In this document: positions 7,849 through 62,967 of the stretch, piece by piece
Layout: every line of letters starts with the position of its first letter
Numbering within the stretch: position 1 is the stretch's first letter
Assembly: GCA_934513685.1 (NCBI GenBank)
Contig: CAKSWY010000002.1
Span: forward strand, 57,946-121,945
Direction of reading: 5' to 3'
DNA length: 64,000 nt
Origin: an uncultured Oscillospiraceae bacterium
GTDB taxonomy: Bacteria; Bacillota; Clostridia; Oscillospirales; Ruminococcaceae
The notes under the pieces: generated by a model
Database searches by the model: none
What the model saw: only the letters and a program-made list of their open reading frames with translations
Told to the model about the DNA's origin: nothing
Made by a program: the position numbers and the translations under genes

Positions 7849-7905
7849 AAAAAACACCGTGGTACATCGGCCGGTTGAACCGGCTTTTGTGCCACGGTGT
7901 TTTTC
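7849..7905. terminator. Bidirectional terminator hairpin (between pseudogene region and the cytidylate kinase-like gene)
   Basis: aaaaacaccgtgg ... ccacggtgttttt long stem containing an inner ccggttgaaccgg hairpin, with A-run and T-run flanks. Confidence 0.6.
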
Positions 7906-7914
7906 AGGTTCGGT

Positions 7915-8529
7915 TTACTTTTCCAGCGCTGCCAGATAGTCCAGCACGGCCTGGGTCACGACCTTGATGTTCTGCCCGGAGGTATTCACCATCAGGTCGT
8001 AATTTTCCCGCGCGCCCCACTTGCGGTCGCTGTAAAACTCATAGTACTTGGCGCGGCCCTTATCAATGCTGGCCATGCGCTTCTTCATCTCCTGCTCGGT
8101 CAGGTGTTCATCCTCGGCCTTACGCTTCATGCAGCGGTCCAGCTTGCTGGCCACATCCGCATACACGAAGATGCGGAACGGCTTTTCATCCCGCAGAATG
8201 TAATCGGCACAGCGGCCAACGATGATGCAGTCCGACTTTGCCGCCATCTCCTGAAGCAGTTTGTGCTGCTCGGCATACACATTCATGCTCTGCTGGAACA
8301 TGGGGTTCGTCACCGGATAAAAGCTGTGCCCGACATGAATGGGGAACGAAGTGATGGGCTTGCGCTCAATGATCTGCTGCACATACTCCTCCGAAAGGGC
8401 CGTGCGCTTGGCGATTTCGGTGATGATCTCCTGATCGTAATAGGCATAGCCCAGCTTTTCCGAAAGGCGGCGCCCTAGCTCACGCCCGCCGCTGCCAAAC
8501 TCTCGTCCAATGGTAATGATTTTGCTCAT
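7915..8529 (-). CDS. Cytidylate kinase-like family protein (P-loop)
   Basis: 204 aa; IITIGREFGSGGRELGRRLSEKLGYAYYD N-terminus typical of the cytidylate-kinase-like family; RBS GGAAAGGAG. Confidence 0.7.
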   Translation of the reverse strand: MSKIITIGREFGSGGRELGRRLSEKLGYAYYDQEIITEIAKRTALSEEYVQQIIERKPITSFPIHVGHSFYPVTNPMFQQSMNVYAEQHKLLQEMAAKSDCIIVGRCADYILRDEKPFRIFVYADVASKLDRCMKRKAEDEHLTEQEMKKRMASIDKGRAKYYEFYSDRKWGARENYDLMVNTSGQNIKVVTQAVLDYLAALEK

Positions 8530-46868: not shown

Positions 46869-47585
<717 letters not shown>

Positions 47586-47587
47586 GG

Positions 47588-48349
47588 TCAGTCACCTCCC
47601 AGATAGGCCGCAATGACCTTGGGGTTATTGCGCACCGCATCGCCTGTGCCCTGTGCCAGCTCACGGCCGTAGTTCAGCACCGTGATGTACTCGCAGATGC
47701 CCATCACAAAGCTCATATCGTGCTCAATGAGCAGCACGGCGATGCCAAAGGTATCCCGCACAAACTTGATGGTGTTCATCAGCTCAGCCGTCTCATTGGG
47801 GTTCATGCCGGCGGCCGGCTCGTCCAGCAGCAGCAGCTTCGGATTGGTGGCCAGCGCCCGGGCGATCTCCAGCTTGCGCTGCTTGCCGTAGGGCAGGCTG
47901 GATGCCTTGAGCTTGGCTTCCTTGTCCAGATCGAAGATCTTCAGCAGCTTCATGGCCTGCTTGTTCATCTCACGCTCCTTCGTGTAGAAGGAGGGCAGAC
48001 GAAGCACGCCAGTCCACATGGGGTAGCGCACCTGATTGTGCAGGCCAACTTTTACGTTGTCCAGCACGGTCAGGTCGTTGAACAGACGGATGTTCTGGAA
48101 GGTACGGGCAATGCCGGCCTGGTTGATGGTGGCCGGCGGCAGGCCGGTGATGTTCTTGCCGTCCAGAATGATGTCCCCTTCCGTGGGCTTGTACACACCG
48201 GTGAGCATATTGAACACGGTGGTTTTGCCCGCGCCGTTGGGGCCGATCAGGCCATACAGCTGGCCCTTTTCAATTTTCAGGTCCAGCTGAGAGACCGCCT
48301 GCAGGCCGCCGAACGCAATGCCCAGGTTTGAAACTTCAAGCAGTGCCAT
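47588..48349 (-). CDS. livG: Branched-chain amino acid ABC transporter ATP-binding protein LivG
   Basis: 253 aa; Walker A GPNGAGKTT, the LivG-specific insertion, Walker B LLLLDEPAAG. Confidence 0.9.
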   Translation of the reverse strand: MALLEVSNLGIAFGGLQAVSQLDLKIEKGQLYGLIGPNGAGKTTVFNMLTGVYKPTEGDIILDGKNITGLPPATINQAGIARTFQNIRLFNDLTVLDNVKVGLHNQVRYPMWTGVLRLPSFYTKEREMNKQAMKLLKIFDLDKEAKLKASSLPYGKQRKLEIARALATNPKLLLLDEPAAGMNPNETAELMNTIKFVRDTFGIAVLLIEHDMSFVMGICEYITVLNYGRELAQGTGDAVRNNPKVIAAYLGGD

Positions 48350-48352
48350 GGC

Positions 48353-49417
48353 TTAGCCCTCCTTCTTTTCTTTGCCAAACTTTTTCCGCAGCTTTTCGGT
48401 CATCTGCTCGCGCCACTGAATCATGGCCGGGGCAGAGTTGAAGAGCATCATCAGGATCAGCACGATGGCGTAGATGAGCATCCGGTAATCGTTCAGGCTG
48501 CGCAGCAGCTCCGGCAGCACGGTAAGCAGCGCCGCCGCGAGGATGGAACCCAGCATATTGCCCATGCCGCCCAGCACCACGAACACCAGAATCAGAATGG
48601 AGGTGTTGAAGTCAAACTTGGTGGCAATGATGGCGTTCTGGGCCTGGCCGTATAGGGCACCGCCTGCACCGGCAATGGCCGCAGAAATGACAAAGGCCAT
48701 CAGCTTGTACTTGGTCACATTGATGCCCACGCTTTCCGCGGCGATGCGGTTGTCCCGCAGGGCCATAATGGCGCGGCCGGCCCGGCTGTTCACCAGATTG
48801 AAGATCACGAACAGCGCAATGAGAATGAGGATAAAGCCGGCGGCAAACGTGGCCGTCTTTTTAATGCCGGGCACGCCCATAGGGCCGCTGAGAATCATGC
48901 GGCCGCCCTCACCCAGCACAATGGTGTTGTTCAAAAAGCTGGCGTGCAGGCCGTTCACATCCATGCCGATGTACAGGTTGTTCACGATGGACTTGATGAT
49001 CTCGCCGAAGGCCAGCGTAACAATGGCCAGATAGTCGCCGTTCAGACGCAGAACGGGAATGCCGATGAGCACGCCCACAATGGCCGCCAGCGCGGCGCCC
49101 ACCAGAACGGCCACGGTAAGCCGCAGCGCGGAAGAAGGCACGGAATCCTGCATGGCCGAGGCCGTGACCGCGCCCGCAAAGGCGCCGACGCTCATAAAGC
49201 CCGCATGGCCCAGGCTCAATTCGCCCAGAATGCCCACGGTCAGGTTCAGGGAAAGGGCCATCAGCACATAGGCGCAGATGGGCACCAGCTGGCCCTTCAT
49301 GGTGGAGGACAGCACCCCGGCGCTGCCCAGAGCCTGGAACAGCACGAAGGCCGCCACCACCACGGCATAGGTGATCACATTGGTGCGCAATGTTTTATTG
49401 GTACGCAAACTTCTCAT
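48353..49417 (-). CDS. livM: Branched-chain amino acid ABC transporter permease LivM
   Basis: 354 aa polytopic permease; RBS GTAAGGTGG. Confidence 0.85.
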   Translation of the reverse strand: MRSLRTNKTLRTNVITYAVVVAAFVLFQALGSAGVLSSTMKGQLVPICAYVLMALSLNLTVGILGELSLGHAGFMSVGAFAGAVTASAMQDSVPSSALRLTVAVLVGAALAAIVGVLIGIPVLRLNGDYLAIVTLAFGEIIKSIVNNLYIGMDVNGLHASFLNNTIVLGEGGRMILSGPMGVPGIKKTATFAAGFILILIALFVIFNLVNSRAGRAIMALRDNRIAAESVGINVTKYKLMAFVISAAIAGAGGALYGQAQNAIIATKFDFNTSILILVFVVLGGMGNMLGSILAAALLTVLPELLRSLNDYRMLIYAIVLILMMLFNSAPAMIQWREQMTEKLRKKFGKEKKEG

Positions 49418-49426
49418 AGTTCCACC

Positions 49427-50347
49427 TTACACTTTCTCGCGGATCTGCTTACCCAGCAGACCGGTGGGCCGCACCAGCAGCACAACAATCAGCACGGCGA
49501 ACACAATGGCATCCGACAGCTGGGTGGAGATGTACGCCTTGGCGAAAATCTCGATCACACCCAGCAGAATGCCGCCCAGCAGTGCGCCGGGGATGGAGCC
49601 GATGCCGCCGAACACCGCCGCGGTGAATGCCTTGATGCCAGGCATGGAGCCGGTGGTGGGCACCAGGGTGGGATACGCCGAGCACAGCAGCACGCCCGCA
49701 ATGGCGGCCAGTGCCGAGCCGATGGCAAAGGTGAGGGAGATGGTGGTGTTCACGTTGATGCCCATCAGCTGGGCCGCACCCTTATCCTCCGAGCAGGCCT
49801 GAATGGCCTGGCCCATCTTGGTGTGCTCAGTAAACCAGGTGAGCACCAGCATGATGACCACGCACACCGCAATGGTGATCAGGGTGGCATACGAAACGCT
49901 CAGCTGGCCGCCCGCGAACTGAATGCCGCTTTTCACGGTCTGGGTGCCGTCGGCGTTCTGCTGGGTGACCACCAGGAAGGACGGGAAGATCTTGGGGTTG
50001 GAAGTCCACAGCAGCTGGGCCGCGTTCTGCAAAAAGTAGCTCACGCCGATGGCGGTGATCAGCACGGCCAGCGAAGGCGCAGAGCGCAGCGGCTTGTAAG
50101 CCAGCCGCTCAATCACCATGCCGAGCACGGTGCACACCACCATGGCCAGCAGCACGCCCACAATGGGAGGCAGCCCAAAAGTGGACACCGCAAAGAAGCA
50201 GATGTACGCGCCCACCATAATGATGTCGCCATGGGCAAAGTTCAGCATTTTTGCAATGCCGTATACCATGGTATAGCCCAGGGCGATGATGGCGTACACA
50301 CTGCCCAGGCTGATGCCGTTGATCAGGTGGTTCAGGAAGGTAAGCAC
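49427..50347 (-). CDS. livH: Branched-chain amino acid ABC transporter permease LivH
   Basis: ~307 aa from GTG 50347 (RBS GAGGTG); LINGISLGSVYAIIALGYTMVYG N-terminus typical of LivH. The six-frame ORF is over-extended upstream. Confidence 0.8.
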   Translation of the reverse strand: MLTFLNHLINGISLGSVYAIIALGYTMVYGIAKMLNFAHGDIIMVGAYICFFAVSTFGLPPIVGVLLAMVVCTVLGMVIERLAYKPLRSAPSLAVLITAIGVSYFLQNAAQLLWTSNPKIFPSFLVVTQQNADGTQTVKSGIQFAGGQLSVSYATLITIAVCVVIMLVLTWFTEHTKMGQAIQACSEDKGAAQLMGINVNTTISLTFAIGSALAAIAGVLLCSAYPTLVPTTGSMPGIKAFTAAVFGGIGSIPGALLGGILLGVIEIFAKAYISTQLSDAIVFAVLIVVLLVRPTGLLGKQIREKV

Positions 50348-50489
50348 AAATACACACCTCAATTTCTGTCTGGGGCCCGAAGGCTCATTCCGGGCGTTCC
50401 GCAACGGAACCCGCAAGGACCGGGATCAGCCCCTGTTTGTGATTTCCGCACAAAGCTACGTGCTTTGGCGGACCGATCGGCCGCAAGGC

Positions 50490-50531
50490 CGGAATGCAAA
50501 AGAAGGGCTGCCGGAACCCGGCAGCCCTTCG
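50490..50531 (-). terminator. Intra-operon attenuator/terminator hairpin between livJ and livH
   Basis: On the minus strand, the perfect stem gaagggctgccgg / ccggcagcccttc is followed by TTCTTTTGCATTCC; a ~245-nt gap separates livJ from livH. Confidence 0.45.
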
Positions 50532-50593
50532 GGGCCTTGAATTCAATTCGACAGCCCTTGCAAACGCAGGGTAATGATGCAGTCGGCCGTGCC

Positions 50594-51823
50594 TTAGTCC
50601 ATGCCGATGTAAGCGCCGTTCTCGATCACCATGCCCTTGGGGCTCTTGGTCACTTCGCCGCTGGTGCTCCAGGTCATGCCCTCGCCGGTCAGGCCGTCAA
50701 ACACGAAGTTGGGAGAGGTGAACTGAGCGATCAGGGCATCGCACATATCACTGGCAGAAGCATCCGCAGCCACACCGGACTCGGTCAGAGCCTGATAGAT
50801 AGCGTACACGCAGTCGTAAGCGTCCGCCGCAAACTGGTTGGGGGTCTCGCCGTACTTCTCGTTGTACTTGTTCACAAAGCTCTTGGTCTTTTCGTCCTGA
50901 GCATCGGCGTTGAAGGGAGTCAACAGAATGACGCCCTCAGCCAGGGACTTGTTGAAACCGTCCAGAGTCAGAATGCCGTCCATGCCGTCCACGCCGAAGA
51001 ACTTGGGTGCATAGCCGATGTTGTTGGCCTGGGTCAGAATCAGAGAAGCCGCATCGTAGTACATGGGCAGGAACAGCAGATCGGCGCCGCTGTTCTTGGC
51101 ATCGTTGATCTGCACGGAGAAGTCGGTCTGGCTGTCCGAGGTGAAGGTGGTGGTGGAAACCACGTCCAGACCCAGCTCCTGCGCCTTGTTCATGAAGCTG
51201 TTGTAAATGCCGGTGGAGTACACGTCATCGTTCTTATAGATGATGGCGATCTTGGTGCCCAGGTTCTTCTCGCTGATGTACTGCGCAGAAGCGGAGCCCT
51301 GGTTGGGGTCCATGAAGCACATCTGGAAGGCATTGTCCTTGCGGGGCACGTCGATGGTGCCGGTCAGGGGGTTGGCCACGCCGCCCAGAACGTCGGTGCT
51401 GGAAGCGGAGGGGGTCAGCAGGAAGATGTGGTCGCCGTTGCTCTCAGCAGAGGTGGCAACGCAGGGGGTGGAAGTAACGGAGCCCAGGAACACCTGCATA
51501 CCCCAGTCCTTCAGGGTGTTGTAGGCGTTGACGGCCTTCTCGGCGTCGTGGGTGTCGTCCTCGTACTTCAGGTCGAGCTGCAGGCCACCCAGAGCATTGA
51601 TCTCCTCAACGGCGATCTCCGCGCCGCGCTTGGCCGCGTTGCCGTAAATGGCTGCGCCGCCGGTCAGGGGGCCGGTGCCGCCGATTTTGACGGCGCCCTC
51701 AGCAGCGGTGCTGCTGGAAGCGTCGCCGGCTTCCGAAGAAGCCGCAGAACTGCTGCTGCCGCCGCAGGCCACCATGCTGAACGCCATGGCCAGGGCAAGA
51801 CCCATACAGATCACTTTTTTCAT
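50594..51823 (-). CDS. livJ: Branched-chain amino acid ABC transporter substrate-binding lipoprotein LivJ/LivK
   Basis: ~409 aa from ATG 51823 (RBS AAGGAGGG); lipoprotein signal MKKVICMGLALAMAFSMVACGG; type-I periplasmic binding fold. Confidence 0.85.
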   Translation of the reverse strand: MKKVICMGLALAMAFSMVACGGSSSSAASSEAGDASSSTAAEGAVKIGGTGPLTGGAAIYGNAAKRGAEIAVEEINALGGLQLDLKYEDDTHDAEKAVNAYNTLKDWGMQVFLGSVTSTPCVATSAESNGDHIFLLTPSASSTDVLGGVANPLTGTIDVPRKDNAFQMCFMDPNQGSASAQYISEKNLGTKIAIIYKNDDVYSTGIYNSFMNKAQELGLDVVSTTTFTSDSQTDFSVQINDAKNSGADLLFLPMYYDAASLILTQANNIGYAPKFFGVDGMDGILTLDGFNKSLAEGVILLTPFNADAQDEKTKSFVNKYNEKYGETPNQFAADAYDCVYAIYQALTESGVAADASASDMCDALIAQFTSPNFVFDGLTGEGMTWSTSGEVTKSPKGMVIENGAYIGMD

Positions 51824-51942
51824 TGTAGTTCCCTCCTTGATGGTTAACCCGCATCTCCAAAGCACTCCGGCCGTTGCAGCCGTACACTTGGCTCGGCCGC
51901 CCTCTTCTTCGTGCCTTTTCTTTGGGGATGTGATGACTTTTA

Positions 51943-51970
51943 TTATACTGGTTTCCATTTCCTCCTGCAA
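51943..51970 (-). promoter_or_regulatory. Candidate promoter for the liv operon (minus strand)
   Basis: Minus-strand TTGCAG, 16-nt spacer, TATAAT, ~120 nt upstream of the livJ ATG. Confidence 0.4.
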
Positions 51971-52245
51971 TAGAATATTTCACCATAGATTTCTCTCATT
52001 TTTACCTGTTTTCCGCCACTATTCACAGAAATTTTTATATTTTTTGGATAGTTGCGCCAAAATGTGTTTCTATGACGTACACACTCGTTTTTCGTTCGAT
52101 TTCACTCGCCCCGTTTTCAGGCGAAGGCCCTCCCCTTTAGCACTGCTCCGGGCAAAATATTCTCCCCCACCGCATTGCAAATACCGAAAGATTCTGACAT
52201 AATAGGTTTATATCGTTTTGTTCTGCCGCAGCCCGGCAGTGAGGA

Positions 52246-52277
52246 GACGCCGCGCGGGGCCTTCCCCGCGCGGCGGA
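52246..52277 (+). promoter_or_regulatory. GC-rich perfect hairpin in the xpt 5' leader (function unknown)
   Basis: cgccgcgcgggg-cctt-ccccgcgcggcg: 12-bp all-GC stem with a 4-nt loop, ~45 nt upstream of the xpt start, with no U-tract after it. Confidence 0.35.
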
Positions 52278-52320
52278 CCGGGCGTCGGCCATTCCAATCA
52301 AATAAATGGGGGCATTTGCT

Positions 52321-52908
52321 TTGAAACTTCTGGAAGATCGTATCCGCAAAGATGGCCAGGTGCGGGCCGGCAACGTATTAAAGGTAGACTGCTTTTTGAA
52401 CCACCAGCTGGATGTGCGCCTGCTGGACGCCATCGGCGCAGAGTTTTACCGTCAATTCAAGGATGCCGGCATCAACAAGATCCTGACCATCGAGGCTTCC
52501 GGCATTGCCATTGCCTGCATGACGGCCCGATACTTTGATGTGCCCGTAGTGTTTGCCAAGAAGGCCAAGAGCAAGAATCTGGACGGCGATGTGTACACCT
52601 CCGTGGTGCATTCCTACACCTACGGCCGCGATTACAACATCACTCTGGCCCAGAAATTCCTCGGCCCCGAGGATCGGGTGCTGATTGTGGACGATTTTCT
52701 GGCCGTGGGCAAGGCCATGAGCGGTCTGCTGGATGTGTGCCAGCAGGCTGGCGCCCAGGTGGGCGGCATCGGCATTGCCATTGAGAAGGGCTTCCAGTCC
52801 GGCGGCGCTGCCCTGCGGGCGGCGGGCTATCGGCTGTCCAGTCTGGCCATTGTGGACGCGATGAATGAGGAAACCGGCGAGATCACGTTCCGTCCCCAGG
52901 AGGATTGA
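52321..52908 (+). CDS. xpt: Xanthine phosphoribosyltransferase
   Basis: ~195 aa; [14 protein letters not shown]-terminus, PRPP-binding motif [13 protein letters not shown]. Start at TTG 52321 (RBS GGGGG) or ATG 52306. Confidence 0.85.
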
Positions 52909-52940
52909 GCGGCTTTCCCCCGGCTTTGAGCACCCTATAA

Positions 52941-52990
52941 GAAGCAGAAGCGGCAGGTCCCAACGGATCTGCCGCTTCTGCTTTTGTTGT
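52941..52990. terminator. Bidirectional terminator between xpt and the Ubl-operon terminal gene
   Basis: Perfect 14-bp stem agcagaagcggcag / ctgccgcttctgct with TTTTGTTGTTTCC after it. Confidence 0.75.
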
Positions 52991-53091
52991 TTCCGGCCGC
53001 GAACGTTTCCCTTACGTTTTACAACACCATTATAAAGCACTATTGCAGAAATCAAGTGATATGCGCCGCTGCATCATGGTGCGGCGGCGGC

Positions 53092-53718
53092 TCAGGCGAA
53101 CGGATTCTTCCCCTCGTCCACCGGCTCCCGCAGGGCGTGAAGCAGCGGCAGCGGGTTCTGCTTGTACAGCGCATAGCCCAGTCCAAGGGCCGCGCCGAAC
53201 GCACCCCCACCCAAAAAGTCGTGGCCGCCTTCAAACAGCAGCCCCGCCGCCAGCAGGCAGCCGCCCATCCACAGCAGGTAGCGCAGAAGGACCCGTCCTC
53301 TGGCCTCCAGCGCTTCCCGCTTGTGCCGGTTGACCGCCCGGGTGTATTGCAGGGCCTGGCCGTCCAGCCCGTGCAGGCGTTCCAGTGTTTCCCAGCTTTT
53401 TCGGGCGGGCGCGATCATCAGGGGAAATGGGGCCAGATTTTCAAAATTTTCCGTGGCCGCCTGCAGCGTCAGCCGATACAGGCGAACCTCGTCGGGCTGT
53501 TGATTCATTAAGGGGGTCAGCAGATCGACCGCCTCTTGCCAGTTTCCGGCCCGCAGATGGCGCACCGCCCGGTCAACGTCCTGGTCGAAGCGGCGAAGCT
53601 GCTCTTCCTGTGCAGGGTCCGCCACCGGCCAGCCGCAGCAGTCGCACTCCCGCCGCATCCGGTTCCGGTTGTAATGGCAGGCCGGGCAGCCGCATTGTGG
53701 GCACCGCCAATCGCTCAT
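53092..53718 (-). CDS. Zinc-ribbon plus transmembrane protein (last gene of the Ubl/E1/E2/JAB operon)
   Basis: 208 aa; N-terminal CPQCGCPACHY...CDCCGW zinc-ribbon-like cysteine cluster, helical middle, C-terminal hydrophobic segments (LLWMGGCLLAAGLLF...AFGAALGLGYALY). Confidence 0.5.
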   Translation of the reverse strand: MSDWRCPQCGCPACHYNRNRMRRECDCCGWPVADPAQEEQLRRFDQDVDRAVRHLRAGNWQEAVDLLTPLMNQQPDEVRLYRLTLQAATENFENLAPFPLMIAPARKSWETLERLHGLDGQALQYTRAVNRHKREALEARGRVLLRYLLWMGGCLLAAGLLFEGGHDFLGGGAFGAALGLGYALYKQNPLPLLHALREPVDEGKNPFA

Positions 53719-53754
53719 CCTGTCACCTTCTCTCTGTTCTCCGGTTTCGTTTTG

Positions 53755-54342
53755 TCAGTGCCGGGGCGGCTTTGCGGGCAGCGGCGGCACCACTTTGTTC
53801 CGGGGTGCCGGGTCAGCTGCCGGGGCAGGCTCCGGGCGGTACGGCGCACACAGCACCGGCGACGGCTCCGCCGCCTGCTGGGCATACCCGTCGTCCGCGC
53901 ATTCCGTCCGGTCATCCGCCGCCGGTTCCTCCGGCTCCAGCCAATCCAGAGGCTGCACGGCGGGCAGCTCACTGTGGGCAGTGGCTGCCGCCATCGGGAT
54001 CAGCACACCCAGAATGGCCAGCGTCATCGCCGCCATGGCAAAGCCCGCCGTGCGCAGGCTGGCGTTCACCGCCAAAAGCACCGCCCCCACCAGAATGGTA
54101 AAGGCCTGGGCCGCCCCGGCCAGCGCCGCTGCACCGGCGGCCCGTCGCAGGCCATACCGCCAGCACAACAGGCAGGCGTAAAGCGGCAACGCCAGAGTAA
54201 GCACGGTGCCCACCCCATGCACCAGCCAGCGGGCCGCCGCCATGGCAGGGGCCAGCCAGAAATAAAACAGCTGAGGCAGGGCCATCAAAGCCAGCAGCGC
54301 GGGCAGCACCATCCACCAAAACCGATTCGTGTTCCGCTCCAT
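53755..54342 (-). CDS. Small polytopic membrane protein with Pro/Ala-rich C-terminal tail
   Basis: 195 aa; RBS AGGAGGATG; 4-5 predicted TM helices. Confidence 0.5.
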   Translation of the reverse strand: MERNTNRFWWMVLPALLALMALPQLFYFWLAPAMAAARWLVHGVGTVLTLALPLYACLLCWRYGLRRAAGAAALAGAAQAFTILVGAVLLAVNASLRTAGFAMAAMTLAILGVLIPMAAATAHSELPAVQPLDWLEPEEPAADDRTECADDGYAQQAAEPSPVLCAPYRPEPAPAADPAPRNKVVPPLPAKPPRH

Positions 54343-54373
54343 GTTTCATCCTCCTGTTCGTTTGCCGTGTGAT

Positions 54374-55441
54374 TCATTCCAATCCGGTTCCGTTCGTCCC
54401 ATGGTTCGTGTGCAGCGGCTGGCCGCAGTGGGGGCAAACCGCCGCCTGCGGGCTGACGCTGCCGTGACAGCAGGGGCACTGCCGCAGCCGCCCCGGCAGC
54501 GGCGGCGTACCCGCCGGGCCGCCGGTTTGGGCCATCGTGCCCACCGTCTGCTGCAAAGTAGGCCAGAGCTGGCTCAGCAGCAGTGCCTGCGCCAAAGGTG
54601 CGGCCATCCCGCCGCCGCTTGCCTGCCCGGCGCTGCTGCCCCGGGCAGGCAGGCCCGTCATGGCTTCCGCCAGCGTGCGCCGGTCCAGGTTTCCGCCCCA
54701 GATCCGTTCCAGATGGTCCTTCTCCAGGTCGGTCTGCGTGCGGCCCGCGGCCTCTTTGCCTTCCAGCTCGTGCAGGCGCGCCCAGCCTTCCTCGGGAATG
54801 TTCACGGCCGTCACCGCAAACTGTTCCAGGCTCAGGCCAAACTCTGCCAGCGCCTGGGACAGCGGGCCGCGGGTCTCGGCCCCAATGGCCCCAAGACTTC
54901 GGTTAAACTCCACAATGGTGTGGCGGTTGAGCGCCCCGGCCAGAGTCTGCCGCAAGGGGGCCAGCACCAGCTGGCGCAGGCAGGGCTCCAGATCCTCGTC
55001 CGAGAACACGGCCTGATAGGTGCCCACCATCGTTTCCAGCGTCTGCAGCGGGTCCGCAATGCGGTAGGCCAAGCTGCACGAGGCCAGCGCCTCCATGGTC
55101 AGCCGGTAGCGCCGCTCCTCAAAGGGGATCGGCCCGGTGCCCAGCTGCATGAAGTTCGTTCTCTGGGTGGACACAAAGAACACGGTCACGCTCACCGGTG
55201 CTTCCCCACCGGTCATCAAATTGCGCAGCCGCACGAAGAAGGGGTCCACCCCGGTCATTAATTCGTAGCGCCCGGGCCAGTACGGCCCGACCACCTGCCC
55301 GTTAAGGGCGACAAAGGCCTGGGTTCCGGCCGGCACCAGCAGCACACTGCCGTTTACCACCGTCCGCCCCGGGCCGCAAAGCTCCGGCATCACGCGAATC
55401 AGGCTGCTTCCGCCCGGATCACGAATCACCCGCTGCAGCAT
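54374..55441 (-). CDS. SPFH/band-7 domain protein with C-terminal zinc ribbon
   Basis: 355 aa; RBS AGGAGGTG; SPFH-like core (PVSVTVFFVSTQRTNFMQLGTGPIPFEERRYRLTMEALASCSLAYRIADP); C-terminal CPCCHG...CPHCGQ zinc ribbon. Confidence 0.65.
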   Translation of the reverse strand: MLQRVIRDPGGSSLIRVMPELCGPGRTVVNGSVLLVPAGTQAFVALNGQVVGPYWPGRYELMTGVDPFFVRLRNLMTGGEAPVSVTVFFVSTQRTNFMQLGTGPIPFEERRYRLTMEALASCSLAYRIADPLQTLETMVGTYQAVFSDEDLEPCLRQLVLAPLRQTLAGALNRHTIVEFNRSLGAIGAETRGPLSQALAEFGLSLEQFAVTAVNIPEEGWARLHELEGKEAAGRTQTDLEKDHLERIWGGNLDRRTLAEAMTGLPARGSSAGQASGGGMAAPLAQALLLSQLWPTLQQTVGTMAQTGGPAGTPPLPGRLRQCPCCHGSVSPQAAVCPHCGQPLHTNHGTNGTGLE

Positions 55442-55460
55442 GGGTACACCTCCTGTTGAT

Positions 55461-56441
55461 TCAGCGGCTCGCCTGTTTCATAAGGGCAACGGCCCTCAGC
55501 GAAGCCACATGGTAAATGTTCCAGCATCCCGGCAGGCCGCGCAAGGCCTCGTGGATCGCCCGGCCCATCTGCGCATCGGTACACGGCGGCTGCATCTGCC
55601 CGTAGGCCATGCCGCCCTGCGCGGCACCGCTGCGCAGATGGCCGGTCAGCTCTGCCAGTGAGCAGACGCTGTGCCCGTGCAGCCGGTAATAGCTGTACGC
55701 CTCGGTGCGGCAGACGGGCAGGCCCTGCCCGGCAAACCCGCTGTGGTCCCGCGAGATCTGCTCGTCCGTCAGGTTGAAATACCGGTAGAGCATCGCGCCT
55801 TTCCCCGGCTTCTCCCAGGTCACATCGCAGTGCACCGGTTCGCCGTTCAGCCAGACCATCGCCCAGCAGTGGCCCTCCGTGCGCCCTCTCCCGAGGATTT
55901 GAACGCAGGCCACCCCGGCCCGGCGCAGGCAGTACAGCAGCAGGGCGTTCTGCCCCTCGCACACGCCCCGTGCGGTCAGCAGCGGCCCCACCAGATTGTG
56001 CTCCTGCTCGCTTCGGGTGTTCTGGTAGCGCAGCTGCCGGGCCAGCCGAATGTAAATGAGTTCTTCCCGCTGCACAAGGCTCAGGGCCGCCGTTCCGGCC
56101 ATCAACGGCAACATTTTCTGCCGGAAGGCCGCCTGCAATGTCTCGATTTCCGCAGGCGTATACAGCATTTGCAGCCGAAGCTTCCCTTCCTGCCCGCCGC
56201 GGTATAAGAAGGTCATCTGCCGCCCGAGGAAGAAGTACTCCGGCCGGTCATGCCGCAGGGCCTTGCAGGCAGCAAAGGCATCGTCGTATGCCCGTTCCCA
56301 CTTTTCCAGCGTCAGCGGAACCTCGGCGCGGTAATCTCCCCCGGCCAGGCGACGGTCCAGCTCATCGTAGAACCGCCTCGCCTGCCCGGGCGGCAGCCGG
56401 TCCCTGTAAAAACAGCGGCCCAGGGCGTGCGGCTCGCTCAT
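55461..56441 (-). CDS. Transglutaminase-like cysteine protease-fold protein
   Basis: 326 aa; RBS GGAAGAGGAGGG; the ATG overlaps the JAB stop (ATGA/TGA coupling). Cys-His-Asp triad context GVCEGQNALLLYCLRRAGV...GHCWAMVWLNG...HCDVTW. Confidence 0.7.
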   Translation of the reverse strand: MSEPHALGRCFYRDRLPPGQARRFYDELDRRLAGGDYRAEVPLTLEKWERAYDDAFAACKALRHDRPEYFFLGRQMTFLYRGGQEGKLRLQMLYTPAEIETLQAAFRQKMLPLMAGTAALSLVQREELIYIRLARQLRYQNTRSEQEHNLVGPLLTARGVCEGQNALLLYCLRRAGVACVQILGRGRTEGHCWAMVWLNGEPVHCDVTWEKPGKGAMLYRYFNLTDEQISRDHSGFAGQGLPVCRTEAYSYYRLHGHSVCSLAELTGHLRSGAAQGGMAYGQMQPPCTDAQMGRAIHEALRGLPGCWNIYHVASLRAVALMKQASR

Positions 56442-56442
56442 G

Positions 56443-57339
56443 TCAGCCCTCCTCTTCCTTCGGCCTGCCCGGAATCGTCAGTGTGACGCGCACTTTGGTG
56501 CAGCGGCGCAGCTTTCCGGTAACACAGCGGACGGTGCCTTTTGCCCCGTCCATGCGCAGGCAGCGGCTGGCCAGCTTCATCAATGCCTCCACCGGGAACT
56601 CCGGCATGGGGTGCTCCGTCTCCGCCGGGTGCGGCGCTTCTTTGGCCGCGGCCTTTGCGGTGCGGCGGCACACGATCACCTGGGCATTCTCAAAGTTTTT
56701 GCCGATGCTGGCCAGCATCTGGCGGCGAATGGGGTCGCACACAAAGATGCACACCGGCGCTTTGGCCGCCCGGGCTTCTCCGCTGCTGCGGTCCGTCCCG
56801 GACCAGAACACGCCCAGATCCGGGTGGGTGTGGCCCTCCAGGCAGTATTCACTGGGCCCGTACTCCAAAAACGGGTCCACCACGCACCCTTGGGCATCCC
56901 GGTTGAAGCGCTTTTCGTCCCGAAGGTACTCGTCCCGGTAATACTCCAGAAAGTCCAGCCCCGGGTTGTTCTCCCCGTTGGGGCCAAGGCCGGAGGCGGA
57001 GCTTCTCGTCCGGTTCATGGTGTGCACCTGCAGAAAGTGGCTGACCACCACGTTCACCCGGCCGTCCTTCTCCAGGAAGAAATGCCCCAGCCCGATGTAT
57101 TTCTGCTCCAAATGGTTCATGGGGGAACGGCGGCCGTAGCTCACCATCATGGTCAGTTCTTCGGCGGCTTCCGGCAGAAAGAACACGTAGTGTCGGCCCT
57201 TGCCGTGGCGCTCTGCCTGAAAGCTGCCGCAGTTCTTCTCAATCACCGCGGCGATCTCCACCGCGCTCAGCACCGGATACGTGCGGGACGGCGTAATGGG
57301 GCGCGGCGGCAACGGCGGGCAGTTCGTTTTCACTTCCAT
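56443..57339 (-). CDS. JAB/JAMM (MPN+) metallo-isopeptidase
   Basis: 298 aa; RBS AAAGGAGAA; JAMM zinc motif EGHTHPDLGVFWSGTD = H-x-H-x7-S-x2-D, with upstream Glu. Confidence 0.8.
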   Translation of the reverse strand: MEVKTNCPPLPPRPITPSRTYPVLSAVEIAAVIEKNCGSFQAERHGKGRHYVFFLPEAAEELTMMVSYGRRSPMNHLEQKYIGLGHFFLEKDGRVNVVVSHFLQVHTMNRTRSSASGLGPNGENNPGLDFLEYYRDEYLRDEKRFNRDAQGCVVDPFLEYGPSEYCLEGHTHPDLGVFWSGTDRSSGEARAAKAPVCIFVCDPIRRQMLASIGKNFENAQVIVCRRTAKAAAKEAPHPAETEHPMPEFPVEALMKLASRCLRMDGAKGTVRCVTGKLRRCTKVRVTLTIPGRPKEEEG

Positions 57340-57380
57340 CGCATGTTCTCCTTTGCTTGCGGGCCTTGCCCGGAGGTTCT

Positions 57381-58008
57381 TTAGCTGCGGCGCGGCAGCG
57401 GGGGCGGCGTGCCCGTGCCGGGGACCGCGCGGCGCACCGGAAGCGGCGGCCGCTGCGGGGCCTCCAGCAGCTTGGGCGAAATGGTGGGAAAGCGCCCGCT
57501 CGCCACACCGGCCCGGTGCCAGTCCGCCACATCGCCGTTGGCCATGGAGTCATAGCGGGTCACCGCCGGGTCGTGGATCATATCCTTCACCAGCTTTTCC
57601 GCCACCGTGAGCATCGAGCTGGTATAAATTTTCCATTCGTCAATGCAGGCGGCCCCGCTGCGGAATACGTTGGGGCTGGCCAGCCGCCGCTTTGCCGGGT
57701 AGGCAGCTTTCACGCTTTTCAGCGGATAGCCCAGAAACACCGCCACCTCCGCGCTCATAGAGGAACAGCTCTTGGGGGAAGCGTCGTCCCGGTCGGTGAG
57801 GTAATGGCTGGGGGCGTGCACCGTGATCCGGAAACGAAACTCCTCGCCCGGCTCACAGGCCACCTCCTCCACCGTCACATACCGGGGGTTGAACATACCC
57901 CGCAGAACGTTCCAGTCGTTGCGGATGGCCTCGCGGGATTCCCCGTCCGAAATGGAAACGGGCACGCTGCTGCCCCGCTCGTCCGTATAAGTCGTGCTGT
58001 ATGCCATG
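57381..58008 (-). CDS. Ubiquitin-conjugating enzyme (E2/UBC fold)-like protein
   Basis: ~209 aa from ATG 58008 (RBS AAGGAGGAG). UBC-like core EFRFRITVHAP..YPLKSVKAAYPAKRRLASPNVFRSGAACIDEW aligns to the eukaryotic E2 Y-P-F-K-P-P-K-V-x-F...HPN(V/I)...G-x-(I/V)-C-L-D block, including the catalytic Cys. Confidence 0.7.
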
Positions 58009-58020
58009 CTTCTCCTCCTT

Positions 58021-59279
58021 TTACTCCAAATGCTGCACCCGATGCATCTGCTCCGGGTCGCCCCGCAGGGCAAACACAAGCGTTTCCCGGCTGCCGTTGG
58101 CCTGCGTGCAGAGCACCTTCAGATGCGCGCCCAGCGGGTAGCCCAGCTGAAACAGGGTCCGTTCTTTCATCTCCGGGTCGCTCTCGGGCGAAAATGCATA
58201 AAGCACATCATCCATTGCGAAATCCACGTCGTACCGGGCCGGGCGGCCGACGGCGCGGCAGGCCTCACAGCGCAGATCCTGCAAAAAGGTGCGGCCCTCG
58301 TGCCGCATCACCTTGATAGGCGCGCCGCAGACGTGGCACAGGTCGCTGCGGATGAACCCGGTGTAGGTGCGCTGGTTGTAATTCAGCCAGTGAACCTGCA
58401 GCTCAAAGGCTGCCTGACCCAGCCGGGCGGCGATCTGCTCCAGCGCCTGTCCCAGCGTAAGTTCCAGCACCGTGCCCTCCAGCCAGAGGATCTCCTTCGG
58501 CGGCTGAACCGCACAGCCCGGGCAGCCCCGCTTCGCCTTGGGGTGGGTCACGGTCAGCTCCATATTCGGATAGGCGTAATAGGTCAGGCGCCGGTTCATG
58601 GCCTCTTTCACGCCGATCACCTGCGCGCGGAATTGCTCCGCCGTCAGGTTGGCCGCATGGCTGCTGGCCAGCCCGCTGGTGCGCACCGGCACCGTCTCAC
58701 CGTCCACCGCGCGCAGCTGCGGCCCGCTGCAGGAGGTGCGCACGGCTCCGTTTTCCAGCCAGCGCTCGTCCATCAGGCAGCGCAGGCAGAACTCTCGGCC
58801 GTCCATCATGACACTGCGCGCCATTTCGTCCTGCGTTCCGTCCATAATCACCACCGGGCGGCGCTCCGGCGGCAGCTGCATCCACAGCTCGTTGAACAGG
58901 GCCTTGGCCGCGTAATTGTCCAGGCACAGCACCACCACGTCGTAGTCCGCCAGTGCCTCCGGGCCGATCCTGCACAGGTCCGTGTCCACCCCGTTTGCGG
59001 TGCAGCCCTCTTCCAGAAACGGCTGCACCCGCCGGGCCACGCACCGGGCCTTGTTTTGGCCCACATCCTCCGGCGTGCGCACCAGGCAGCTGTGCTTGGC
59101 GGCATTTTCCAGCGTAAAGGTGTCAAAGTCGAGCAGGTCCAGGCTGCATCCCATTTTCACCAGCGCTTCCGCCACGTTAGACCCCACCGCGCCCGCGCCG
59201 CAAATGAGCACGCGTTTTCCGCCGAACAGCGGCCGATAGGCCGACAGCTTCAACGGATTGTACAGACGATCCTCCATCA
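58021..59279 (-). CDS. ThiF/MoeB-type ubiquitin-activating (E1)-like enzyme with C-terminal Cys-rich domain
   Basis: ~419 aa from ATG 59279 (RBS AGGAGG). Rossmann motif KRVLICGAGAVGSNVAEALVKMG, then LDLLDFDTFTLENAAKH; four C-x-x-C pairs in the C-terminal third. Confidence 0.8.
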
Positions 59280-59312
59280 TTTCCTCCTGTTTTGTTTCCG
59301 TCCTCGGCGACC

Positions 59313-59786
59313 TCAAAGAATGGGCCGCCCGTTGGGGGCAATTCGATGGCCGTTCGGGCAGCGATAACATCCGGCCGTTTCATTCCAGAAAATTTTCTGG
59401 GGCTGCCCGGGCAGGTTCCGCGCCCGGTCGATTGGGCAGCACGGGAACTGATCCGGCCGAATGCCCCGCGGCCCCGCGCCTGCCGCCGGGAGGGTGCGTC
59501 GCACCGCCGGTTCCGACCGCGAGGGCCGGGCGGTTCGCGGGTTCCGGTGGTTGATCGGCTCTTCCCGCCGCGCCGGGCGTACGTTTGCCGGGGCGGCCAG
59601 TCTCGGCCGATTTCCCACAGGCTGCCGAAGCGCCGCCGGGCGGCTCGCGCTGCCTCTCCCCTGCGGCAGAGGCGGCGGCTGTCTGCTTTTGTACGATGGT
59701 TTGCTGCGGCGGTTCAGGGCCATCCAGGCAGCCCCACCGCCCAGCAGCAGAATCGCCCCCGCTGCAATGCAAATCCAGTTCAGCAT
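59313..59786 (-). CDS. Small membrane-anchored protein with Arg/Pro-rich disordered tail
   Basis: 157 aa; good RBS GAGGAAGGA 7 nt upstream of the ATG; N-terminal TM helix MLNWICIAAGAILLLGGGAAWMAL; the rest is low-complexity R/P-rich. High GC makes a spurious ORF possible. Confidence 0.4.
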   Translation of the reverse strand: MLNWICIAAGAILLLGGGAAWMALNRRSKPSYKSRQPPPLPQGRGSASRPAALRQPVGNRPRLAAPANVRPARREEPINHRNPRTARPSRSEPAVRRTLPAAGAGPRGIRPDQFPCCPIDRARNLPGQPQKIFWNETAGCYRCPNGHRIAPNGRPIL

Positions 59787-59828
59787 GTACGATTCCTTCC
59801 TCGTTTTGCGGTGTTTGTCCGAAAATGA

Positions 59829-60146
59829 TTAAGCCACGCCGCCGTCGTCCGAAATGGTCAGCACATCGCCGTTCATCAGCCCCATGCCCTCCACCGTCTC
59901 GTTCTCATCGCAGCTTTCCACACCGGTGCGCTTATTCACAAACACCAGCTTGGCCGCGTCCCTCCGGATTCCCAGATCCTGCGCATACGCGTCCAACAGC
60001 TGGCCCATGGTGTTGCCTCCCACCACCGGGACCTTGGCGTAGGTCACGCCGCTGCCCTTGTTCACCAGATCGATCTCCATCATGGTCTGGGTGGTGCTGT
60101 CCTGCATGGTCGCTTCGCTCGCATCAAATTTGTTCCGTTCCGTCAT
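59829..60146 (-). CDS. Ubiquitin-like (beta-grasp) protein with C-terminal ...GG-VA
   Basis: ~105 aa from ATG 60146 (RBS GAAAGGGAG). ~80-aa beta-grasp-sized core ending LTISDDGGVA*; first gene of the operon that also encodes E1, E2 and JAB. Confidence 0.7.
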   Translation of the reverse strand: MTERNKFDASEATMQDSTTQTMMEIDLVNKGSGVTYAKVPVVGGNTMGQLLDAYAQDLGIRRDAAKLVFVNKRTGVESCDENETVEGMGLMNGDVLTISDDGGVA

Positions 60147-60169
60147 GGTTCGTCTCCCTTTCTGCACTC

Positions 60170-60563
60170 ATACTGTGTGTTGTATCCGGATTCCGCAGCT
60201 TCTTGTGAAAGCCTCGTGTCCGGATTTCTTTATGTCAAAACTCTCGCCGCCGGATGCATATTGTCGGATATACGATGCAACTTTTCAAAATTTGCTGCAA
60301 TTGGAGGAATTGACGCGAAACAGCAAAAGCCGCGGTGTCTGCACACCGCGGCTTTTCTGCTTTATTTTATAGGACATATGGTACGATAGGCACGCACAGG
60401 GAAGGCTTTGCTGCATTGGCATTCCCCTCGAGAGGATTTGATTGGTGTTATCGCATTAATTGTTTACGTAATTACTTGCGGAAGCTTGAACGGCGGCCGA
60501 AATGGCAGCATATTAGATTCACATACGATATACTTTCTTTCCTTTGGAGCGTTCAACCTCCAA
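60170..60563. promoter_or_regulatory. AT-rich intergenic region between the Ubl operon and the CRISPR array (Ubl-operon promoter region / CRISPR trailer)
   Basis: ~400 bp, distinctly AT-richer than its surroundings. Four direct CCGGAT/TCGGAT repeats (60185, 60220, 60250, 60275) and a perfect 14-bp hairpin aaaagccgcggtgt-ctgc-acaccgcggctttt at 60325-60356. Confidence 0.45.
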
Positions 60564-62073: not shown

Positions 62074-62967
62074 TCACCGACTGTATCCGTTGCGTTCCGC
62101 TCCATTTTCGTTTAGTTTCGCATAAACTTTCTGCGTCAAACGGCAGTCGGGCACCGCCCGGTGCTCTACCTTGTCTGCCAGCGCAAAATGCTGCGCCAGT
62201 GCAAGCAGTTTATAACTGGACAGGCCCAGTATTTTTCGCCGTGCAAGAGGAAGGAGATCGATTTTCCGGTTGGCCAAAACCGGTTTCATGTTCCGAATGC
62301 AGGCCATACGCAGAAATTCCAAATCAAATTGCAGGTTGTGTCCCACCAAAGTATCTTTGCCTACAAAGCGCAGGAACGCCTCCAGCGCATCCGCGGCGTC
62401 CATACCGCCTTCCAGTTCTTCCTGTGTGATGCCCGTCAGGCGGGCAATTTCTGCGGGCAACGGCGTTTCCAGCCGCACCAGCGCCGAAAACTCCTCTCCT
62501 GGCTGCCCATCCCGGACCCGGACCGCGCCATACTCCACGATTGCATCCGTTGCCGCATGCAGTCCTGTTGTTTCAAGGTCGATCACGGTATAATCCTGCT
62601 TTCCGGGCGGTCGGGCAGCTCTTTGCGCCATTTTCTGTGCCATCTGATACTTTGCCGCCTTGCTGAATCCCGGTTTCAGCTCCAACGCCTCGACCTGGGG
62701 TTGCGCTTGCGGAAGCGGACGGCGCATCAGCTTAATGCCGTCGTAATCCACCACTTCCCAGTTAGTATTATGGGTGCGGAATTCCATCTTCTGCTCGCCG
62801 GCCGCTGTATAGACCATCGTCGCCTGTCCATTTTTCAGGTACTGGCAGACCCGATCCCAGACCGCATCCCGCACGCGGCTGCTCACGTTCCCCACGTAGA
62901 CGCCGGTGTTGATCTCACACAGCCATTTGGACAGATCTCCCCGCAGGCGCGGCGGGCAGCTGGTCAT
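62074..62967 (-). CDS. cas2: CRISPR-associated Cas2 fused to DnaQ-like 3'-5' exonuclease (type I-E Cas2-DnaQ)
   Basis: N-terminus PPRLRGDLSKWLCEINTGVYVGNVSSRVRD matches E. coli Cas2 [26 protein letters not shown]. C-terminal DEDDh exonuclease motifs (VIDLETTGL, GHNLQFDLEFL, YSR). The true start is probably upstream at a non-ATG codon (~62982), restoring the IVVLT beta-strand. Confidence 0.85.
   Translation of the reverse strand: MTSCPPRLRGDLSKWLCEINTGVYVGNVSSRVRDAVWDRVCQYLKNGQATMVYTAAGEQKMEFRTHNTNWEVVDYDGIKLMRRPLPQAQPQVEALELKPGFSKAAKYQMAQKMAQRAARPPGKQDYTVIDLETTGLHAATDAIVEYGAVRVRDGQPGEEFSALVRLETPLPAEIARLTGITQEELEGGMDAADALEAFLRFVGKDTLVGHNLQFDLEFLRMACIRNMKPVLANRKIDLLPLARRKILGLSSYKLLALAQHFALADKVEHRAVPDCRLTQKVYAKLNENGAERNGYSR

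Follow-up and report, generated by a model that had tools for sequence, protein, structure and literature searches.

The 64,000-nucleotide stretch of DNA analysed here (the window; positions 57,946 to 121,945 of contig CAKSWY010000002.1, assembly GCA_934513685.1, from an uncultured Oscillospiraceae bacterium) carries nine open reading frames (ORFs), arranged head to tail on the minus strand within 53092-60167, that encode a ubiquitin-like protein (Ubl), an E1, an E2, a JAMM/JAB peptidase and five conserved partner proteins. This operon is a new variant among bacterial ubiquitination-like conjugation operons and belongs to none of Bil, Bub, type II CBASS (a system of antiphage signalling based on cyclic oligonucleotides) and 6A-MBL. 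Three of its features are unusual: the Val-Ala terminus of the Ubl, a network of proline-arginine docking motifs and a YdjIHG-like SPFH module accompanied by a transglutaminase-fold enzyme. We hold, with somewhat better than even confidence, that the operon encodes a self-contained, horizontally mobile and membrane-tethered Ubl conjugation system, which is Bil-like without being a member of the Bil family and whose likeliest role is in conflict with phages or mobile elements at the membrane. The nine genes and the two putative signals around them are:

59829-60146, minus strand: g1, Ubl of 105 aa with the end ...DDGGVA, a ubiquitin/SUMO-like modifier
59313-59786, minus strand: g2, N-terminal transmembrane (TM) helix, Pro/Arg-rich linker with PPLPxxR and C-terminal zinc ribbon
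58021-59280, minus strand: g3, E1 of about 419 aa counted from M31 of a long ORF, with a single ThiF adenylation domain
57381-58007, minus strand: g4, E2 of 208 aa starting MAYSTTY, with a predicted UBC fold
56443-57339, minus strand: g5, JAB of 298 aa, a JAMM/MPN metallopeptidase
55461-56441, minus strand: g6, transglutaminase-fold (TGase) Cys-His-Asp protein of 326 aa with a conserved N-terminal helical region
54374-55441, minus strand: g7, soluble YdjI-type SPFH protein (Band_7_1) in which a low-complexity linker and a PLPGR motif accompany a C-terminal zinc ribbon
53755-54342, minus strand: g8, four TM segments and a cytoplasmic tail ending PPLPAKPPR
53092-53718, minus strand: g9, N-terminal zinc ribbon (C6/C9/C25/C28), helical region (G-N-W) and one or two C-terminal TM helices
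60260-60288, minus strand: promoter-like site TTGAAA-17-GACAAT 5' of g1, the only sigma-70-like match in 52800-60500
52941-52984, called on the plus strand only: 20-bp GC-rich hairpin between g9 and the converging xpt gene

A sequence-only reading of the window had described these genes as a tightly packed minus-strand operon, and all nine ORFs are indeed present in that order. A scan of one genome per species (185,579 species) located 32 loci of this kind, referred to by handles such as L001 where they have to be told apart. Because the gene order recurs in about 20 independent genomes, the nine-gene arrangement is not due to chance. From g1 to g9 the intergenic gaps measure 42, 32, 13, 41, 1, 19, 31 and 36 nt. 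The tight packing thus stands, whereas the range given for it (0-42 nt) becomes 1-42 nt, as the JAB/TGase junction (GGAGGGC-TGA-C-ATG) has a 1-nt spacer and no overlap. The E1 start was placed at M31 (59280) because orthologues start there, and the E2 start at MAYSTTY (58007) because of homologue lengths of 204-213 aa and the starts of the alignments. The promoter-like site carries little weight since 0.8 such matches are expected by chance in 52800-60500. The hairpin is likely the terminator region for both xpt and, with putative use on the minus strand, g9. That a terminator exists only after the last gene, as had been supposed, could not be established: the strong hairpin was called on the plus strand only, and weak minus-strand sites lie inside the operon.

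Scans of the nine window proteins with Pfam, PADLOC and NCBIfam recognised only the E1, the TGase and the SPFH protein. Hence, such scans by themselves left the assignment of the Ubl, E2 and JAB undecided and, as these three are invisible to Pfam, structure models and profiles were needed. The E2 has no Pfam match at E<=0.1, missing the UQ_con gathering score, and no PADLOC or NCBIfam match; single-sequence and family-profile searches of PDB sequences returned nothing significant, the best profile 'hits' being antibody light chains. Its AlphaFold model (predicted local distance difference test, pLDDT, 88.5) retrieves E2 enzymes only (top 50 Foldseek matches, probability 1.0). The best structural matches are UBE2F, UbcH5, UBE2S and Ubc9, so that BilB is structurally the more remote from the model when compared with the E2s of eukaryotes. 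The active-site loop reads S111-P-N-x4-G-x2-C121-I-D. In an alignment of 140 homologues, all unannotated and from metagenome-assembled genomes of Lachnospirales and Oscillospiraceae, it takes the form L-A-S-P-N-V-F-R-x-G-x-x-C-I-D-x-W, which corresponds to the UbcH5 loop HPN-x4-G-x2-C-L-D with Ser for His. By model and alignment, the E2 has a UBC fold whose catalytic Cys sits in an HPN-x7-C-type loop, so that the UBC-fold E2 proposed from the sequence is borne out with the correction that its motif is SPN, not HPN. The family is small: the E2 profile found only 90 clusters among 1.84 billion representative proteins. Distant members pass Pfam UQ_con with 49.7, 43 and 37.7 bits (cut-off 27). Unusual architectures also occur in the family. 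The members P0256, P0323, P0271 and P0314 include an E1-E2 fusion of 640 aa with the end PPPLPGG and a Ubl-E2 fusion of 320 aa with the linker ...YDANVAG, and two giant proteins of 3954 and 6218 aa contain 13 and 5 E2-like stretches, respectively.

The JAB shows the hallmarks of a JAMM isopeptidase that had been predicted for it. Among 174 homologues, E57 and H-T-H-P-x6-S-x2-D are invariant, which in the window protein correspond to the upstream Glu and H170-T-H172-x7-S180-x2-D183 of the JAMM/MPN+ signature. Single-sequence and family-profile searches of PDB sequences gave nothing significant, and the AlphaFold model is of moderate quality (pLDDT 69.5); it has an MPN fold and is structurally closest to Rpn11 and CSN5.

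The E1 was recognised directly. It contains one ThiF stretch (residues 53-280; Pfam ThiF, E 1e-20), and the alignment of its family profile to PDB chains likewise covers one adenylation domain only. The closest chain is UBA3 (2e-11), followed by Uba1, TcdA, Cap2, ThiF and UBA2. All PADLOC matches of the E1 are Cap2-type 'E1-E2' models (1.7e-13), and the NCBIfam 6A-MBL cap2_3 model is matched at 8.8e-10. In NCBIfam, the scores for the cofactor-biosynthesis enzymes fall far below the curated cut-offs (ThiF, 52 vs 275 bits; MoeB, 32 vs 266). The zinc-binding Cys pairs that the sequence-only reading had placed near the C-terminus of a ThiF/MoeB-type E1 were found as well: invariant Cys pairs form the usual CxxC...CxxC zinc site, and a second CxxC...CxxC lies in a C-terminal domain of about 150 aa. 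The crossover region contains an invariant T-S-C (C214 of the long ORF), whose Cys is a candidate thioester Cys.

A direct homologue search with the Ubl performed poorly (8 clusters only), and the family alignment was rebuilt from the loci. The best PDB matches of this profile are SUMO-1, Ddi1-UBL, NPL4, USP4-Ubl, BilA and ubiquitin (E 0.011 upward, range 0.01-0.8), with the alignments to SUMO, ubiquitin and BilA in register to the C-terminus. A comparison of the Ubl with SUMO, ubiquitin and NEDD8 in hhalign gave 85% probability (E 6e-6), and no ThiS or MoaD chain was retrieved from the PDB at E<=10. A Ubl gene is present in 29 loci, always directly 5' of g2 and the E1.

Only the terminal Val-Ala is invariant in the Ubl family (consensus A-G-V-A). 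The preceding residue is mostly Gly, with Arg, Glu, Val, Ser, Cys and Asn occurring as well, and the end GG-VA is restricted to this strain. In the SUMO alignment, the Ubl tail D-N-A-G-V-A is equal in length to Q-E-Q-T-G-G and V-A stands opposite the G-G of SUMO. The beta-grasp-type Ubl described earlier is favoured by the SUMO and ubiquitin profile matches, while its interpretation as a Gly-Gly end followed by a two-residue propeptide is probably wrong. Tandem di-Ubls, joined as ...AGVA-A..., were counted in four loci (with ORFs listed for L004, L010, L012, L028 and L040), and short C-terminal extensions after GVA occur in four loci, suggesting that the JAMM peptidase processes precursors. 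From these sequence patterns, the mature activated end of the Ubl is most likely ...V-A, freed from precursors by the JAMM peptidase. The Ubls of the distant L036 clade end A-G-N-G. The number of Ubl copies varies from 1 to 4 per locus: L023 has four Ubl genes (4983-6521) and L002 has two (7324-8252), the second of which ends AHII. L008 (7499-8134) is another of the loci with such variation. The paralogues that lack the Val-Ala end (AHII, ...AITAY and ...VYSW) could be decoys, pseudogenes or non-conjugatable forms.

The second unusual feature is a short motif, P-[LM]-P-x-R (LPPxR), which is positionally conserved in five of the nine proteins. It is found twice in the C-terminal tail of the E2 (30 of 33 orthologues; window 57387-57446) and usually twice in the linker of g2 (25 of 30; 59655-59678). 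The JAB carries it within residues 6-20 (24 of 32 orthologues; in the window PLPPR at residues 9-13, 57301-57315), the SPFH protein directly before the zinc ribbon (15 of 21; PLPGR, 54488-54502) and g8 six residues from its end (15 of 15; 53770-53784). The motif is absent from the Ubl (0/29) and the TGase (0/27) and is not conserved in g9 (1/21). Its density of 2.4-10.4 per 1000 aa compares with 0.3-1.0 in shuffled sequences, relative to which it is 7-25 times commoner, and with 0.22 in 197 flanking proteins. Moreover, in the L036 clade, which is only 25-33% identical, LPPPxR motifs occupy the corresponding positions. In sequence, the motifs resemble SH3/WW ligands. As they persist in loci without g6-g9, their receptor must be a core protein, and the TGase and g9 were rejected as PLPxR receptors for the same reason.

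Membrane association is predicted for g2, g8 and g9. The sequence-only reading had noted g2 as a small TM protein and missed its conserved zinc ribbon (FPCCPxD...CYxCxxGH); TM prediction supports one TM segment. The presence of g2 in 30 loci, those lacking g6-g9 among them, marks it as a core component. The three last genes correspond to the SPFH protein with zinc ribbon, the polytopic membrane protein and the zinc-ribbon TM protein that had been proposed. The g7 product matches Band_7_1 (E 1.7e-19), has a C-terminal CxxC...CxxC and gives weak matches to zinc-ribbon models; four TM segments are predicted for g8, the most divergent gene of the block, and one or two for g9 with its N-terminal zinc ribbon. 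This set resembles the B. subtilis membrane-stress system PspA-YdjGHI, in which YdjI combines SPFH, low-complexity linker and C-terminal zinc finger, YdjH is polytopic and YdjG combines a zinc ribbon with TM segments (PMC8581546); the N-terminus of YdjG, MIISYKCPNC, was read from a primer sequence given there (PMC8581546). YdjGHI have been renamed SamGHI (10.64898/2026.02.06.704340). In both systems a soluble Band_7_1 SPFH protein, a polytopic protein and a membrane protein that begins with a zinc ribbon are encoded side by side. Unlike ydjGHI, the genes in the operon stand in reverse, I-H-G-like order, are joined to a Ubl conjugation operon and encode PLPxR motifs. Furthermore, none of the nine proteins matches PspA/IM30 in Pfam. 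A profile (Pfam Band_7_1) ties only g7 to YdjGHI; for g8 and g9 the likeness to YdjH and YdjG is one of architecture.

The TGase agrees with the transglutaminase-like Cys-His-Asp protein described earlier: it matches Transglut_core (Pfam, E 1.4e-7), and C161, H191 and D206 are invariant across orthologues. Among solved structures it has a single relative: the transglutaminase-like protein 9crn_A, itself uncharacterised, aligns over nearly the full length (E 1.4e-15). A literature search for PDB entry 9CRN found nothing.

All 32 loci belong to Clostridia-type Bacillota sampled from humans, chickens, rabbits and the rumen, with hosts in the Oscillospiraceae, Lachnospiraceae, Butyricicoccaceae and Anaerovoracaceae and one in the Erysipelotrichaceae. 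About 20 loci share the gene order of the window, with g8 often too divergent to be detected. Five loci have g1-g5 only (L011, L024-L027), three keep g1-g6 (L005, L006, L020) and four are cut by contig ends. Overall, g7-g9 are missing from 8 loci that keep g1-g5. Because g1-g5 persist where g6-g9 are absent, the conserved core is Ubl, TM/zinc-ribbon protein, E1, E2 and JAB, to which the TGase and the SPFH module are frequent yet separable additions. In a Lachnospirales variant, g1-g6 are followed by ClpP and a VirD4-like ATPase. The distant copy L036 has the order Ubl, TM/zinc-ribbon protein, E1, E2, JAB, TGase, SPFH and zinc-ribbon TM protein, without g8; its E2 carries a true H-P-N, and a STAND-like NTPase follows the block. 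A still more distant E2 relative belongs to a minimal DnaJ-E1-Ubl-E2(UQ_con)-JAB cluster beside a type III restriction-modification system, HipA and an integrase.

The closest relative, L001, is collinear with window positions 47440-60416, where L001 ends at a contig edge. Between the two, the operon is 90.7-90.9% identical and the housekeeping flank 95.1%. The G+C content is 64-67% across 54-60 kb compared with about 60% in the rest of the window, placing the operon 4-7 points above the window average. The higher divergence together with the raised G+C suggests faster evolution or a separate origin.

How does the operon relate to systems already described? The claim that its layout is unlike the canonical Bil and Bub layouts was corroborated in each respect compared, namely gene order, E1 architecture, E2 loop, gene fusions and DUF6527. 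Bub, type II CBASS Cap2/Cap3 and 6A-MBL are alike in using an E1, an E2 and often a JAMM protein for conjugation in bacterial conflict systems. Unlike Bub (types I and II), the operon has no Ubl-E2, E2-E1 or JAB-E1 fusion and no DUF6527 protease (BubE). Unlike type II CBASS, it has no CD-NTase and no Cap2 E2-E1 fusion, and only the E1 domain scores on Cap2 models. Unlike 6A-MBL, it has no metallo-beta-lactamase, and all four activities are separate proteins. The identities Bub and CBASS were therefore rejected on defining features, as were those of Bil and of a sulfur-carrier pair, which are weighed below. Moreover, searches of PADLOC, NCBIfam and a paper library turned up no named system with this gene content, the literature searches yielding only the papers on Bil, Bub and CBASS and those of the Aravind group.

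The catalytic parts resemble canonical eukaryotic enzymes more closely than do those of characterised bacterial systems. As in canonical eukaryotic and archaeal (Caldiarchaeum/Asgard-type) cascades, the loop spacing of the E2 is identical to that of UbcH5. The E2 resembles UBE2F, UbcH5, UBE2S and Ubc9, the JAB Rpn11 and CSN5, the E1 UBA3 and the Ubl SUMO-1. In contrast to these cascades, however, the E1 lacks an inactive adenylation domain or subunit of its own, the Ubl has no Gly-Gly end, the host is a bacterium and the partners are membrane proteins.

From the folds, the motifs and the conserved synteny we infer how the catalytic steps and the assembly at the membrane might proceed. The E1 would adenylate the C-terminus of the Ubl, most likely its terminal Val-Ala, and take the Ubl onto a Cys, for which the T-S-C of the crossover region is the candidate. 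The Ubl would then be passed to Cys121 of the E2, which would conjugate it to target amines, and the JAMM peptidase would both free Ubl units from tandem or extended precursors and reverse conjugates. The single-pass zinc-ribbon protein g2 might hold this machinery at the membrane, with the P-[LM]-P-x-R tails of g2, E2, JAB, SPFH and g8 docking onto a common core receptor, possibly the g2 zinc ribbon or the E1 C-terminal domain. SPFH, g8 and g9 could form a YdjI/H/G-like membrane platform, and the transglutaminase-fold enzyme would act on tagged proteins as a protease, an isopeptidase or a cross-linker. A role in conflict is favoured by several observations: the system is rare and yet scattered over several families, the operon is raised in G+C and has diverged more than its flanks, Ubl copy number varies, and the neighbours include CRISPR in the window and, in other loci, a HerA-like ATPase with a WHH nuclease, STAND NTPases and kinases. 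The earlier proposal that the last four genes are an effector or abortive-infection module is one option only, given that g7-g9 are YdjIHG-like and dispensable in part of the loci.

Several points weigh against this reading. No PADLOC family for the Ubl, E2 or JAB was matched at E<=0.1, only a generic E1. The Ubl assignment draws on marginal E-values (0.01-0.05) and one hhalign comparison, and the JAB model is of low confidence around the metal and active site. The Val-Ala may be a conserved propeptide that is trimmed off, and we know of no Ubl conjugation system in which a C-terminal Ala acts as acceptor. The operon contains no RING E3, and neither an E3 nor a substrate was identified. To name the aromatic-rich g2 zinc ribbon or the E1 C-terminal domain as receptor of the motifs is a guess. 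The defence role itself is plausible but circumstantial: adjacency to CRISPR was seen in this genome only, many flanking genes in other loci are housekeeping genes, and the frequent VirD4-like neighbours are a possible pointer to a function for a mobile element.

This last point leads to a first alternative, in which a conjugative or otherwise mobile element carries the cassette as cargo or as a working part, and Ubl conjugation serves that element, for instance in entry exclusion, control of DNA or protein transfer, or anti-defence, and not the immunity of the host. We consider it unlikely. At least 12 loci are bracketed by VirD4/TraG-type coupling-protein ATPases (T4SS-DNA_transf, E 5e-35) and conserved unknown partners. 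Genes for an 847-aa HerA/FtsK-family ATPase and then a WHH/colicin-DNase protein come after g9 in 12 loci, the ATPase starting 6-22 bp beyond g9 wherever its gene was called exactly. A transposase adjoins the L033/L034 copy, and one IMG/VR 'viral' contig carries the extended locus. However, the window, L001, L017, L018 and L022 carry g1-g9 without VirD4/HerA-type neighbours. Neither a relaxase nor a VirB4 set nor phage structural genes came to light, and on the IMG/VR contig PHROGs recognised no phage structural genes, its matches being limited to a ClpP-type protease. In addition, tblastn with the E2 found no match in 72,556 plasmids and 50,697 phage genomes.

Second, the system might serve non-immune membrane homeostasis, with Ubl tagging regulating or clearing membrane proteins on a SamIHG-type SPFH platform and the transglutaminase-fold enzyme acting as a processing peptidase; it would then be a bacterial counterpart of the ubiquitin-dependent quality control of membrane proteins. 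The YdjI/YdjH/YdjG architecture of g7-g9 and the membrane proteins g2 and g8 would fit such a function, as would the location of the window copy, whose 3' side is taken up by the housekeeping genes xpt and a Liv-type ABC transporter. On the other hand, housekeeping of this kind is hard to reconcile with a rare and patchy system (32 of 185,579 species), with a G+C above the flanks, with variable Ubl copy number and fast Ubl evolution, with the lack of a PspA partner in the operon and with the absence of g7-g9 from loci that retain the conjugation core. We regard this explanation as quite improbable.

Third, the operon could be a divergent member of the Bil (BilABCD) family with passenger genes. 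Like Bil, it encodes Ubl, E1, E2 and JAMM deubiquitinase (DUB) as separate genes in one operon (PMC10557695; 10.1101/2023.09.04.556158), and BilA, BilC and BilB are weak structural or profile matches. As in Bil, some Ubls have residues past the reactive end or tandem beta-grasp units, implying JAMM processing; the distribution is sparse, with horizontal transfer and some copies near CRISPR-Cas. Yet Bil has the order Ubl-E2-DUB-E1 and a multidomain E1, BilD, with an inactive and an active adenylation domain and a helical CYS domain (IAD+AAD+CYS; PMC10557695), whereas the order here, which recurs in related loci, is Ubl-TM/zinc-ribbon-E1-E2-JAB-TGase-SPFH-TM-zinc-ribbon TM, and the E1 is a single adenylation domain protein of about 420 aa that is most similar to UBA3, Cap2 and ThiF. 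The Bil E2 (BilB) lacks the classical HPN His and has a His downstream of the catalytic Cys instead (PMC10557695; 10.1101/2023.09.04.556158), whereas the E2 of the operon keeps a canonical (H/S)PN-x7-C loop. The Bil Ubl has a conserved Gly and a variable tail, in contrast to the invariant Val-Ala found here. Bil is further defined by protection against phage, in which the Ubl is conjugated to a virion protein. Five extra genes, conserved in about 20 genomes and in the 25-33% identical lineage, and the proline-arginine motif network further separate the two, and the operon is limited to Clostridia-type Bacillota, unlike Bil (Proteobacteria, Rhizobiaceae). Finally, sequence and profile searches of the PDB retrieved no BilB, BilC or BilD chain and BilA at E 0.75 only. 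Membership in the Bil family therefore has very little chance of being correct.

The weakest alternative, a MoeB/ThiF-MoaD/ThiS sulfur-carrier pair for cofactor biosynthesis, is suggested by the ThiF/MoeB matches of the E1 in NCBIfam and Pfam and is effectively refuted by their sub-threshold scores, by the co-conserved UBC E2 and JAMM peptidase, by a Ubl profile that finds SUMO, ubiquitin and BilA rather than ThiS or MoaD, by the lack of a Gly-Gly end across the Ubl family and by the absence of thiamine or molybdopterin genes near the operon in the window.

Bacterial ubiquitination-like systems (CBASS Cap2/3, Bil and Bub) have only recently been shown to conjugate proteins and are cited for an antiviral origin of ubiquitination. 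The operon family would add a fourth layout to these three. Its E2 keeps the HPN-type loop and fold of eukaryotes, its Val-Ala Ubl end tests the assumed need for a C-terminal glycine, and short proline-arginine motifs appear to organise its enzymes at the membrane, which would be an assembly in the style of eukaryotes. An SPFH scaffold and an enzyme of the transglutaminase fold are, moreover, linked to the conjugation enzymes. The hosts are gut Clostridia of humans, chicken, rabbits and the rumen, where defence against phages and plasmids has been little explored. A bolder reading, which we put forward tentatively and would not expect to hold in full, is that of an unrecognised membrane-assembled class of ubiquitination: five proteins with up to seven SH3-ligand-like motifs between them would all bind a single receptor domain, the Ubl would be activated at a C-terminal Ala instead of a Gly, no bacterial proteins seen so far would stand nearer to the canonical eukaryotic enzymes than this E1, E2, JAMM and Ubl and, together with the SPFH platform and the transglutaminase-fold peptidase, they would tag membrane-associated targets of host or invader. 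If true, bacteria would thus possess an analogue of the surveillance of membrane proteins by ubiquitin.

The neighbourhoods of the other loci were surveyed in a census of 127 unclassified flanking proteins with Pfam and PADLOC. The flanks are heterogeneous: next to kinases, PP2C phosphatases, STAND NTPases and nucleases they hold aldo-keto reductases, esterases and transporters, and only scattered PADLOC matches were obtained, which is not strong enough to call a defence island. Loci without g6-g9 or of the divergent clade adjoin large STAND/AAA NTPases, Ser/Thr kinases with TPR repeats and PP2C phosphatases (L036, 8651-12157; L020, 11625-14288, minus strand; L025, 6366-10384; L026/L027, about 3150-6790), which may be alternative sensor or effector partners.

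Two gene clusters recur beside the cassette. The HerA-like ATPase is listed for L004, L008, L010, L012-L015, L021, L023, L028-L030 and L040 (e.g. L012, 14844-18084; in L015 it lies 736 bp beyond g9), is encoded on the same strand as the cassette and matches DUF87, TraG P-loop and HerA_C in Pfam and HerA, mad8 and DndH in PADLOC. The gene for the WHH/colicin-DNase protein (234 aa) overlaps that of the ATPase, and the genes behind this pair often encode ClpP, then a 377-aa protein of unknown kind and a VirD4-like ATPase. A second cluster lies 5' of g1 in L002, L007, L012, L014, L016, L019, L032 and L033-L035 (e.g. L033, 589-5781). Its five products measure 282 aa (encoded on the opposite strand), 339 aa, about 550 aa (a VirD4/TraG-type coupling-protein ATPase), 338 aa and 154 aa, and of these the ATPase alone has a Pfam or PADLOC match.

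The type I-E CRISPR-Cas locus reported beside the operon was confirmed. An array of at least 23 repeats, recurring every 61 bp, extends 5' of g1 (about 60.6-62.06 kb), with its edge about 450 bp from the Ubl gene, and beyond it lie a Cas2e-DnaQ fusion and then Cas1e (365 bits). The defence-island role deduced from this adjacency is weaker than claimed, as the adjacency was seen in this genome only and the other loci have mixed neighbours; repeats of the window's CRISPR type were found in none of them, other repeat types not having been searched for there. In the Cas2e fusion (62074-62967, minus strand), which adjoins Cas1e, Cas2e is joined to a DEDDh (DnaQ-like) 3'-5' exonuclease domain.

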